64,000 nt of DNA from Caulobacterales bacterium (GTDB lineage Bacteria > Pseudomonadota > Alphaproteobacteria > Caulobacterales > Caulobacteraceae), in contig JAFLCS010000005.1 of NCBI GenBank assembly GCA_017302105.1, positions 73,574 to 137,573 on the forward strand, given 5' to 3'. Position numbers and translations under genes: made by a program. The number at the start of each line of letters is the position of its first letter. Within the stretch, counting starts at the first letter, position 1. The notes beneath the pieces were generated by a model that was not told the origin of the DNA, made no database searches, and saw nothing but the letters and a program-made list of their open reading frames with translations. Positions 35,471 through 36,783 of the stretch are shown here, in pieces.

Positions 35471-36337
35471 ATGCCCGACCCCCTCAGCAGTGTCGTGGCC
35501 CTCACCGACGCCGCAGGCACGGCGACCCAGATCAACCGCTATGACGAATACGGTGTGCCGCAGGCGGGCTTCTCAGGCCGGTTCGGCTATGCCGGGGCGA
35601 TGTACCTGAACCGGGGCATGGCCGCGCCGTGGAACATGAGGAACCGCCAGTACAACCCGACGCTGGGTCGTTTCATGCAGACGGATCCGATTGGCATCGC
35701 CGGCGGCGTGAACCTCTACGCCTATGTGGGCGGGGATCCGGTGAATATGAGGGATCCGTTTGGGTTGGAAAAGGAAATGATAACTCGCGCTCAGTGCATT
35801 GATCGTGGCGGCACTCTCGTAGGCCCGCCACCAGGAATGACCGGTGGCGATCGTTGCCTGATGTCAAGCTCGATCCCCGCGATCAATTCTTGGCTCGACG
35901 GAATTCTTGGTTGGGTGGCAAGCATAGGCGGTGGCGGTGGCGGTGGCGGTGGCAGTTTCGCCACCGGACTTCCCGGCTGTGTTATAGATTTTCCACAACC
36001 AAGAGCTAATTTCAATCTCGGAGCCATTCGGCTGCATGGCGGTTTAGCGCCATTTAGCTGGTTCGATAATAGCGTTACTTTTGGGACAAATATATATATT
36101 GCAGGAGGTCATTCTGGAATATTTGAAACCTATAGTGGTGCATGGCACGTATTTCACGAGATTGGCCATACGCCACAATGGACTGAAGGGCGGCTTACCA
36201 TGCTAGGAGCAGTTCTGGAGTATCTCTCAGTGGGAGGGCACGATGCCGCGTGGTTCGAGGTAGAGGCTGATAATTTTGCCAATAATCATGCACCAGAATT
36301 TTGGCTATCAGGAGCTGCGTCGAGATGTTCAAAATAG
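35471..36337 (+). CDS. Orphan Rhs cassette 2: short core remnant plus an HExxH zincin-like C-terminal tip
   Basis: MPDPLSSVVALTDAAGTATQINRYDEYGVPQAGFSGRFGYAGAMYLNRGMAAPWNMRNRQYNPTLGRFMQTDPIGIAGGVNLYAYVGGDPVNMRDPFGL ends at 35767. The tip contains a Gly9 run and WHVFHEIGHTPQW. An in-frame ATG lies at 35471; the ORF caller's TTG at 35390 is probably an artefact. Confidence 0.75.
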   Translation: MPDPLSSVVALTDAAGTATQINRYDEYGVPQAGFSGRFGYAGAMYLNRGMAAPWNMRNRQYNPTLGRFMQTDPIGIAGGVNLYAYVGGDPVNMRDPFGLEKEMITRAQCIDRGGTLVGPPPGMTGGDRCLMSSSIPAINSWLDGILGWVASIGGGGGGGGGSFATGLPGCVIDFPQPRANFNLGAIRLHGGLAPFSWFDNSVTFGTNIYIAGGHSGIFETYSGAWHVFHEIGHTPQWTEGRLTMLGAVLEYLSVGGHDAAWFEVEADNFANNHAPEFWLSGAASRCSK

Positions 36338-36783
36338 ATCCTTTCGTAGCAAAAGTGACGATACTGATTGCAATTTGCATCCAGATGGCTGGATGCTTTG
36401 CGGAGCATCCACGTATACAAAACGTTGATAGAATTGAATATGCGTTGAGCCTACCGATAGAGAGGCGGATTGATCTTTATGAAGATATATACAATCAGGG
36501 CGATCACCCACGCGATAGTTCTTTGTCAGTTGCATTTAGGGACGAGGGGGATGCCGCGTTTTACGCCGTCATTCGGCGAATGATATCGACTCATTCCTTC
36601 TATAGCATGATATGGATTGTAAAATTGATCGACCAAGGCGGAAATATTAATGCATGTATTTCTCCTTATTCAGATGTATTGCGAGAGCGGGTCGCAGCTC
36701 TTGAAATTTCTCAACAGAATTCCTCTCTCATTACATTTAGACACTGTACGCTTCAAGCAATGGTTGCCGATACGGTTAGGTGA
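36325..36783 (+). CDS. Putative immunity protein for orphan tip 2 (candidate lipoprotein)
   Basis: MFKIDPFVAKVTILIAICIQMAGC is a lipobox-like N-terminus. AGGAG lies 11 nt upstream of the ATG at 36325. The gene overlaps the orphan-2 3' end by 13 nt. GC is about 40-45% from hand counts of several 60-nt lines. Confidence 0.55.
   Translation: MFKIDPFVAKVTILIAICIQMAGCFAEHPRIQNVDRIEYALSLPIERRIDLYEDIYNQGDHPRDSSLSVAFRDEGDAAFYAVIRRMISTHSFYSMIWIVKLIDQGGNINACISPYSDVLRERVAALEISQQNSSLITFRHCTLQAMVADTVR

Follow-up and report, generated by a model that had tools for sequence, protein, structure and literature searches.

An orphan Rhs cassette in a Caulobacterales genome with a proposed, divergent DUF4157-like metallopeptidase tip and a probable periplasm-facing immunity partner

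Orphan Rhs toxin-immunity modules, located behind main rhs genes, are known from loci of Enterobacteriaceae, and the orphan Rhs toxins of Salmonella are reportedly an example of such modules. Here we describe a locus that we regard, with hardly any doubt, as an orphan Rhs toxin-immunity cassette, situated at positions 35471 to 36783 on the forward strand of a 64,000-nucleotide stretch of a Caulobacterales bacterium (assembly GCA_017302105.1, contig JAFLCS010000005.1, positions 73,574 to 137,573; hereafter, the window). The closest described counterparts of its toxin come from other secretion systems. The C-terminal domain of VgrG2b (VgrG2b-Cter) and Tpe1 are gluzincins of type VI secretion systems (T6SS), "frequently annotated as DUF4157," that are toxic only in the periplasm; in VgrG2b, helix alpha5 has the third zinc ligand, E983, at its top, and the cognate immunity proteins of VgrG2b and Tpe1, which are periplasmic, lipoproteins, or anchored in the inner membrane, have functionally important disulfides (Wood et al. 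2019, PMC6899460). DUF4157 corresponds to Pfam entry PF13699 (eCIS_core), a member of the Peptidase MA clan (PMC11467057). In effectors of extracellular contractile injection systems (eCIS), it stands at the N terminus, ahead of long linkers and further toxin domains, with a role that has been elusive (Geller et al. 2021, PMC8213781). Finally, an Rhs protein of Salmonella Dublin, SED_RS06335, carries a C-terminal metallopeptidase tip of family M91 (PMC13556075). Taking all of the evidence below together, we consider it likely that the present locus is an orphan Rhs cassette that pairs a divergent DUF4157-like mini-gluzincin toxin with a periplasm-facing immunity partner.

The cassette is the second orphan of an Rhs array on the forward strand, headed by a full-length Rhs/YD-repeat gene (28913 to 33241, +) that is tied to the orphans by three families of direct repeats (D1 to D3). 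The 3' core of this main gene, which ends with DPWGL near 32650, is followed downstream by three partial copies of itself, starting near 33641, 35471, and 36781, and would be the partner for recombination with the orphan cassettes. The copy in the cassette is a core remnant of about 99 codons (35471 to 35767, +), without an N-terminal shell and without a signal peptide, of which positions 35521 to 35767 are 93% identical over 247 nt to main-gene positions 32404 to 32650. Model TIGR03696 (Rhs_assc_core) matches residues 51 to 126, counted from 35390, of the enclosing open reading frame (ORF; 35390 or 35471 to 36337, +) with 64.6 bits, against a cut-off of 32.5. The core end (...GGDPVNMRDPFGL) closes with an autocleavage-type PxxxxDPxGL motif (here, DPFGL), the last base of which is 35767. 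The 189-aa tip that follows (35768 to 36334; stop codon, 36335 to 36337) opens with a two-cysteine segment (EKEMITRAQCIDRGGTLVGPPPGMTGGDRCLMSS), spaced Cys-x20-Cys, and continues with a hydrophobic, helix-like stretch (IPAINSWLDGILGWVASI). This first part of the tip (35768 to 35925, +) is probably a linker or plug region; comparable Cys-containing, Gly-rich linkers are found in relatives, one of which (P0011) can be aligned from query residue 8 onward. Nine glycine codons, (GGC GGT)n, at 35926 to 35952 (+) then lead into the toxin domain proper, a probable DUF4157-like mini-gluzincin by family search, alignment, and structure prediction, of 128 aa plus stop (35951 to 36337, +). The candidate immunity gene, encoding 152 aa, occupies 36325 to 36783, and Rhs homology picks up again at its stop codon, which marks the distal boundary of the cassette. 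An earlier, sequence-only reading had described the DPFGL end, the Cys segment, the nine glycines, the HEIGH motif, and the 152-aa ORF, all of which proved to be present, with the coordinates that it gave confirmed.

The low GC content that the same reading had attributed to the 152-aa ORF was confirmed: it amounts to 0.428, with 0.477 for the tip domain, compared to 0.646 for the adjoining core remnant (GC at third codon positions, 0.838) and 0.653 for the whole window. An equal drop is seen in a Sphingomicrobium metagenome-assembled genome (MAG; locus L005), with values of 0.467 for the tip, 0.431 for the immunity gene, and 0.619 for the core, and the low-GC tip and immunity module is of foreign origin. 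With its DPxGL core remnant, variable tip, immunity gene, and compositional break, the cassette resembles the enterobacterial orphan Rhs modules, as it does in its homology to the main 3' core, which permits tip replacement by recombination. It differs from them in having an alphaproteobacterial host and relatives in Sphingomonadales, and in that the main Rhs protein, rather than being linked to PAAR or VgrG, bears a Sec signal peptide. When the start used by gene callers (28994) is taken, this Sec-type signal peptide reads MSWLRSLLIAFVLTLGLTTPALA, followed by QQP.

An exhaustive HMMER scan of 1.84e9 representative proteins retrieved 31 relatives of the tip at an E value of ≤1e-3, 12 of them at ≤1e-10, aligned over query residues 61 to 187 (approximately), i.e., after the nine glycines. 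The family is rare, comprising some 30 clusters at 50% identity among these 1.84 billion proteins, and is borne almost exclusively on Rhs proteins, at their very C termini. In the longer relatives, the match lies at the extreme C terminus, right after DPxG(L/M) and a linker rich in Cys and Gly, for instance in P0014 (1397 aa), P0023 (1395 aa), and the Rhs fragments P0006, P0007, P0011, and P0019. Since an intact, 1368-aa Rhs protein with a signal peptide, encoded at positions 2272 to 6378 of L005, also carries this tip, the domain is a genuine Rhs toxin tip, rather than a peculiarity of fragments. The full-length Rhs proteins that carry or adjoin the tip (the main-gene product, the L005 protein, P0014, and P0023) all have Sec signal peptides and measure about 1370 to 1440 aa. 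Both copies that could be placed in named genomes belong to Sphingomonadales, namely an Erythrobacter genome (L004) and the Sphingomicrobium MAG, and family proteins bear no public names other than "RHS repeat-associated protein" or "hypothetical protein." A k-mer-prefiltered search of 5.8 billion proteins with the toxin as the query found only the toxin itself, and with the profile merely five proteins on short contigs; a tblastn search against 72,556 plasmids gave no match, and the main toxin subfamily was not found in viral contigs.

In an alignment of 24 family members (A1; residue numbers refer to the 128-aa domain), six positions are invariant (H69, E70, H73, H97, E103, and A106), and six more are nearly so (S41, T43, G45, F68, Q76, and C126). 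The first three constitute the HEIGH motif (36155 to 36169, +), which lies within a predicted helix (residues 61 to 78) and is followed by the near-invariant Q76 (36176 to 36178, +). H97, E103, and A106 belong to the stretch HDAAWFEVEAD (36239 to 36271, +), which lies beyond the Pfam DUF4157 model: the family extends about 50 residues past that model, with a G-x-H-D-x-x-x-x-E-x-x-A-D block and a cysteine three residues before the stop codon. That cysteine, Cys126, has a proposed disulfide partner in Cys10, at the LPxC position (35978 to 35980, +); of the 20 members that are complete at both ends, all keep both cysteines except P0032, which has neither. The window domain is the most divergent member of the family and has an altered N-terminal "FLKGRI" block. 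Its membership is secure, given that a leave-one-out profile, built without the window copy, scored it at 109.8 bits (E value of 9e-27 for 1.84e9 sequences), versus 7.5 bits for the best of 2,000 shuffles.

Through these relatives, the domain can be linked to DUF4157. In a Pfam scan, PF13699 was matched by 21 of the 24 members (best E value, 9.1e-8), and two of the ten members that were scanned individually, P0004 (24.9 bits) and P0028 (28.5 bits), exceeded its gathering score of 22 bits. In these ten, the model was covered from position 1 to 3 up to position 74 to 78 of 79, ending at HExxHxxQ. The window domain has the same DUF4157 layout, represented by IRLH, SVTFGTNIYI, and HEIGHTPQ. Since the relatives match PF13699 and the window copy belongs to their family, the DUF4157 layout put forward in the sequence-only reading proved right by transitive homology, and a DUF4157-like zincin, with HExxH invariant in the family, is borne out by the relatives, though the window copy itself is too divergent for the model. 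We therefore hold it to be highly probable that the tip is a zincin-fold domain from a divergent branch of DUF4157/eCIS_core. The alternative offered in that reading, a peptidase of the Tox-MPTase type, had to be abandoned: the window copy did not match, and only one of its 24 relatives did so, weakly (Tox-MPTase4; E value of 0.069, 11.5 bits, cut-off of 25). Likewise, no match to M91 was found among the 24 members, so that the likeness to the M91 Rhs protein and the Tox-MPTase families lies in the placement of a zinc-metallopeptidase toxin at an Rhs C terminus, while the peptidase families differ. With PF13699/eCIS_core, the domain shares the succession of beta strands, T-x-G-x-x-I, and HExxHxxQ. 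Unlike the eCIS effectors, however, it is C-terminal and the sole domain of the tip, has an extension of about 50 aa containing H97 and E103, and is accompanied by its own immunity gene; nor was an eCIS context encountered, the domain being at an Rhs C terminus and the genes within about 10 kb being of the housekeeping type (the search for eCIS genes being limited to this range). In direct Pfam and NCBIfam scans, the only trace of a zincin in the window tip was a marginal match of Peptidase_M60 to the HExxH stretch (E value, 0.085 to 0.17). Kelch matches, obtained in these scans of the tip and the 152-aa ORF, were at chance level and were dismissed, and no lipoprotein family was matched.

An AlphaFold2 model based on A1 reached a mean predicted local distance difference test score (pLDDT) of 88.9 and a predicted TM-score (pTM) of 0.85; a single-sequence AlphaFold model (pLDDT, 31) was useless. 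In the former, strands (residues 27 to 30, 42 to 44, and 47 to 49) precede the HExxH helix (61 to 78), which is followed by helices 84 to 94 and 101 to 119, and this predicted order of elements is that of a minimal gluzincin. The last helix starts with E103 (36257 to 36259, +), which, with its gluzincin-like ExxxD setting at the helix top, is the candidate for the third zinc ligand in the model, the invariant H97 being the alternative. In a Foldseek search of the PDB, the top three matches were zincins (BlaR1, with an E value of 0.49 and a query TM-score [TMq] of 0.48; anthrax lethal factor; and ZMPSTE24). Of the 25 best BFVD matches (E values from 7e-3; TMq, 0.45 to 0.59), those with a recognizable function name were almost all zincins, labeled M48, SprT-like, IrrE-like, "metallopeptidase," or "Vgr2b binding protein"; at rank 15, an "AAA domain containing protein" of 1143 aa, matched locally, departed from this pattern, and several others were uncharacterized. 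These predicted-structure matches are consistent with a zincin fold, without proving it. Matches from a single-sequence PDB search were rejected as artefacts of the Gly linkers in fusion constructs.

The 152-aa ORF (MFKIDPFVAKVTILIAICIQMAGC...; 36325 to 36783, +; stop codon, 36781 to 36783) matches no Pfam family, and a k-mer search with it found only itself. Its assignment as the candidate immunity gene was based on its position and on homologues in the same position. Loci were fetched with a closer sub-alignment (A2), the full A1 being too divergent to serve as a locus query. In the Erythrobacter genome (L004), the Sphingomicrobium MAG (L005), and the metagenome contigs L006, L007, L010, and L014, an ORF of 143 to 147 aa overlaps the last 13 nt of the toxin gene, with its start at positions 6366, 6366, 481, 729, 241, and 1425, respectively (in L014, the first 110 immunity codons are on the contig); L011, with the first 20 codons, shows the same geometry, with a start at 1767. 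In the window, the 13-nt overlap spans 36325 to 36337 (+). BLASTP comparison of the window protein to its positional homologues yielded E values of 1e-8 (L004) and 9e-10 (L005), at about 25% identity. In view of these homologues in L004, L005, and the metagenome loci, we conclude that the 152-aa ORF is a real gene. Its ATG consists of the last base of an Arg codon and the TG of the toxin Cys126 codon (AGA TGT), and the start at the other loci is likewise built from an A, or in L014 a G, plus the TG of the terminal Cys codon of the toxin. This conserved start geometry ties the two genes together across at least 60 to 70% sequence divergence. The overlap may constrain both the cysteine and the start codon and may couple translation.

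That the partner is a lipoprotein, as had been proposed on the basis of its leader, was upheld in part. In an alignment of the immunity family (A3), Cys24 of the window protein, in a lipobox-like M-A-G-C (Cys codon, 36394 to 36396, +), is aligned with the lipobox cysteine of five homologues (LTGC, VSGC, LTAC, LLGC, and TYGC), and a PROSITE PS51257-type lipobox rule was passed by five of the seven aligned members, as well as by the L011 fragment; the leader of the window copy itself fails the strict rule. Two further cysteines, C111 and C140 in the window copy, are conserved in A3. The residue at +2 after the lipobox cysteine is Asp in three homologues (CDRGS) and Phe in the window copy (CFAE); Asp at this position is an inner-membrane retention signal in Escherichia coli, and localization may differ between members of the immunity family. 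The immunity ORF was not called at loci L001 and L003 and was represented by a 48-aa call only at L002, and the exact protein was found on 2 contigs, versus 7 to 12 for the toxin; its GC content of 43%, in a genome of 65% GC, is likely why gene callers missed it. A PDB match of the immunity profile, to a "cytochrome c555 trimer" (E value, 6e-6), was judged to be a spurious, summed repeat match, since no individual stretch was significant and the family has no CxxCH motif.

How might such a pair work? The toxin would be a minimal gluzincin in which, going by the predicted helices, H69 and H73 bind zinc, E70 serves as the catalytic base, and E103 (or, alternatively, H97) provides the third ligand, while a Cys10-Cys126 disulfide might staple the N and C termini of the domain together. 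As these two cysteines are kept in the complete members and are lost together in P0032, the domain can be inferred to fold and act outside the cytoplasm. Once fused to a full Rhs shell, it would be released by cleavage at DPxGL and delivered, and would cleave a protein of the cell envelope in the periplasm of the target. Its partner, a lipoprotein or membrane-anchored protein facing the periplasm, would neutralize the toxin by binding, which would also protect the producer, whose Rhs protein is itself Sec exported. In the orphan position, the toxin would most likely stay silent until homologous recombination with the main rhs gene, at the 3' core of the latter, brings it into use; the immunity gene, for its part, may be expressed alone, conferring resistance to kin carrying this tip. 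The periplasmic target suggested in the sequence-only reading agrees with the toxin cysteine pair being kept or lost as a unit, with the conserved cysteines of the immunity partner, and with the example set by VgrG2b/Tpe1 (PMC6899460). A periplasm-acting, active metallopeptidase, neutralized by a lipidated partner and silent until recombination, is what we favor for the mechanism, albeit with some reserve.

By analogy, the best reading is that the family works like VgrG2b-Cter and Tpe1-Tpi1 without being a member of that family. Shared features are a small HExxH gluzincin with a third-ligand Glu atop a downstream helix (both predicted for the present family) and an immunity gene immediately downstream, the product of which has conserved cysteines. 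Conversely, searches matched the window domain to the solved VgrG2b domain neither in sequence nor in fold; the spacing from HExxH to the Glu is 29 residues, compared to 43 in VgrG2b; the domain is borne on an Rhs C terminus instead of a VgrG spike or a free effector, without T6SS genes nearby; the toxin has a terminal cysteine pair; and the immunity family has no relative in Pfam.

Several observations weigh against the picture of a periplasm-acting DUF4157-like peptidase with a lipidated partner. The window tip failed to match PF13699 even at an E value of ≤10 and had no direct zincin match in Pfam or NCBIfam. Neither the PDB nor BFVD gave a Foldseek match at an E value of ≤0.001, VgrG2b-Cter was not among the 17 Foldseek PDB matches, and the family profile found nothing among PDB sequences at an E value of ≤10. 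The putative metal site and the Cys10-Cys126 disulfide are placed by sequence and predicted helices, not by the geometry of the model. To our knowledge, the substrate of VgrG2b itself is not known. The 10 kb or so to each side of the cassette held no VgrG, PAAR, or other T6SS genes, and recombinants joining the main Rhs core to this tip (32650 to 35768) were absent from four metagenome runs. In the window leader (MFKIDPFVAK-VTILIAICIQMAG-C), positions -1 to -3 are acceptable, but IQMAGC fails the lipobox rule through the Q at -4. Lastly, the eCIS literature tends to view DUF4157 as a marker or trafficking domain.

This last point lends itself to a different explanation, in which the DUF4157-like domain is not the killing activity but a module for trafficking, chaperoning, or processing. 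In eCIS effectors, it is regarded as an N-terminal marker of unclear role, and one such effector is reportedly toxic independently of its metalloprotease motif. In our cassette, however, the domain ends the protein, with the stop codon three residues past the conserved cysteine; it directly follows the Rhs DPxGL cleavage site, the usual place of an Rhs toxin; it is paired with a dedicated, covarying downstream gene; and the 189-aa tip holds no other candidate toxin domain, which together make such an auxiliary role very improbable. The atypical lipobox bears on the partner protein, which could instead be unlipidated, with an uncleaved N-terminal helix in the inner membrane and its bulk in the periplasm. 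Both IQMAGC and the MLGFC of L014 fail the lipobox rules, and the Tpe/Tpi family includes lipoprotein and transmembrane-anchored immunity proteins alike; on the other hand, the cysteine aligns with a canonical lipobox cysteine in five homologues, and G, A, and M at -1, -2, and -3 of the window leader are acceptable in a lipobox. This we rate as unlikely, though the least so of the explanations that compete with ours.

A further question is whether the cassette still functions, and in which form. It might be a decaying relic, a low-GC leftover of horizontally acquired DNA in which the toxin, the immunity protein, or both no longer work: the adjoining third orphan is clearly truncated and tip-less, the window domain is the most divergent of its family (with no direct Pfam match and an altered "FLKGRI" block), and the immunity ORF, with its atypical lipobox, was missed by gene callers on most contigs. 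Yet both ORFs are intact, the toxin keeps all six invariant and all six near-invariant positions, Cys24, C111, and C140 as aligned in A3 are all present in the immunity protein, its overlapping start is preserved, and 12 contigs that stem from different samples carry an identical protein sequence, so that we give decay little credence. About as little can be said for expression of the cassette on its own, as a product of 288 to 315 aa from ATG 35471 (or TTG 35390) acting as a toxin or in another role without a full Rhs protein. The in-frame ATG to which the sequence-only reading had drawn attention is present, intact, and used by public gene callers (288-aa product), and in two RNA libraries, in which the organism is barely present, a 173-nt contig exactly matches the core of the cassette (35579 to 35751) and a 152-nt contig spans the toxin/immunity junction. 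These are, however, the only long exact matches in 18 kb, both are of low depth, and the libraries may contain DNA, which is too thin a basis for the stand-alone protein that had been envisaged. Such a product, which would lack a signal peptide and the Rhs shell and keep just 99 core residues, could not be encapsulated or exported; the conserved disulfide pair points to a domain that folds outside the cytoplasm; and a promoter scan revealed no promoter-like site on the forward strand, which likewise counts against stand-alone expression.

Orphan Rhs cassettes, like metallopeptidase toxins with envelope immunity, are an established kind of system, and the architecture of the one described here is ordinary. 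What is new is a rare subfamily with a DUF4157-like domain in the Rhs toxin position; a cognate immunity family that is undescribed and unannotated and was missed by gene callers in this organism; and a conserved immunity start codon built on the terminal Cys codon of the toxin. The pair offers a compact, genetically tractable system in which to ask what DUF4157-type zincins cleave, in VgrG2b and eCIS effectors alike. In a bolder and distinctly speculative version, a bare DUF4157-type domain of about 125 residues would by itself be a periplasmic killing enzyme with a lipoprotein antidote, borne on Sec-exported Rhs proteins of Sphingomonadales with no link to the T6SS. Should this hold, the DUF4157 "marker" of eCIS effectors would be not a passive tag for trafficking but an active peptidase directed at the envelope, and these alphaproteobacteria would deliver Rhs toxins by an undescribed, T6SS-independent route.

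The same array was found on 12 public contigs with unchanged gene order. With the toxin protein 100% identical on all 12, the array is stable in a widespread alphaproteobacterium of activated sludge; the cassette recurs, nearly identical, in metagenomes of wastewater, activated sludge, and bioreactors that date from 2017 to 2025 (runs X1 to X20). The (GGC GGT)n stretch of the linker draws unrelated, high-depth contigs from public runs, giving rise to false depth spikes and false "joints," and the apparent joints in metagenome contigs were set aside as short-sided and repeat-caused. The array is flanked by genes for GroES/EL, AhpC, DUF305, MutY, and a CcrM-like methylase. Immediately downstream of the cassette, the core remnant of the third orphan (36781 to 37440, +; end approximate) lacks a tip and was recognized by RHS_repeat (60.9 bits) and by its homology to the main gene: 36781 to 37080 is 85% identical to 31545 to 31844, and 36980 to 37279 is 89% identical to 31744 to 32043. 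In the corresponding ORF (36781 to 37685), main-gene homology stops near 37440 and gives way to unrelated, Arg/Pro-rich sequence, which runs into the 3' end of a convergent DUF305/DUF4142 gene (37504 to 39975, -); the third orphan resembles a truncated end piece on the distal side of the array. The other tips have downstream ORFs of their own: a 122-aa membrane-like ORF (33232 to 33600), overlapping the main rhs stop by 10 nt, and a 109-aa acidic ORF after the first orphan tip (35000 to 35329). Neither these two tips nor their partner ORFs had a Pfam match, and the GC content falls to 0.51 to 0.59 over both modules.

Among the relatives, P0032 (731 to 1153 in L013; 4998 to 5423 in L015) stands apart in that both conserved cysteines are missing and it is not joined to an Rhs protein. 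It was found on an IMG/VR viral contig, where an endolysin (phrog_7; E value, 1.7e-28) is encoded two genes upstream of it and a lipoprotein partner is lacking, and it may represent a phage lysis-associated use of the same zincin; this Cys-less, phage-borne relative hints that the family has its substrate in the cell envelope. At L009, the toxin relative is followed by an 86-aa, hydrophobic, Cys-rich ORF (985 to 1245) that has no Pfam match and does not belong to the lipoprotein family; this ORF may be an alternative type of immunity gene or no gene at all. In L010, finally, the toxin tip and its lipoprotein gene (241 to 669) are succeeded by another orphan Rhs fragment (835 to 1715), the tip of which starts with the same domain family (RHLPGCLQKFLKGKIDSDPSTIQLH...), such that two cassettes of one toxin family stand in tandem.

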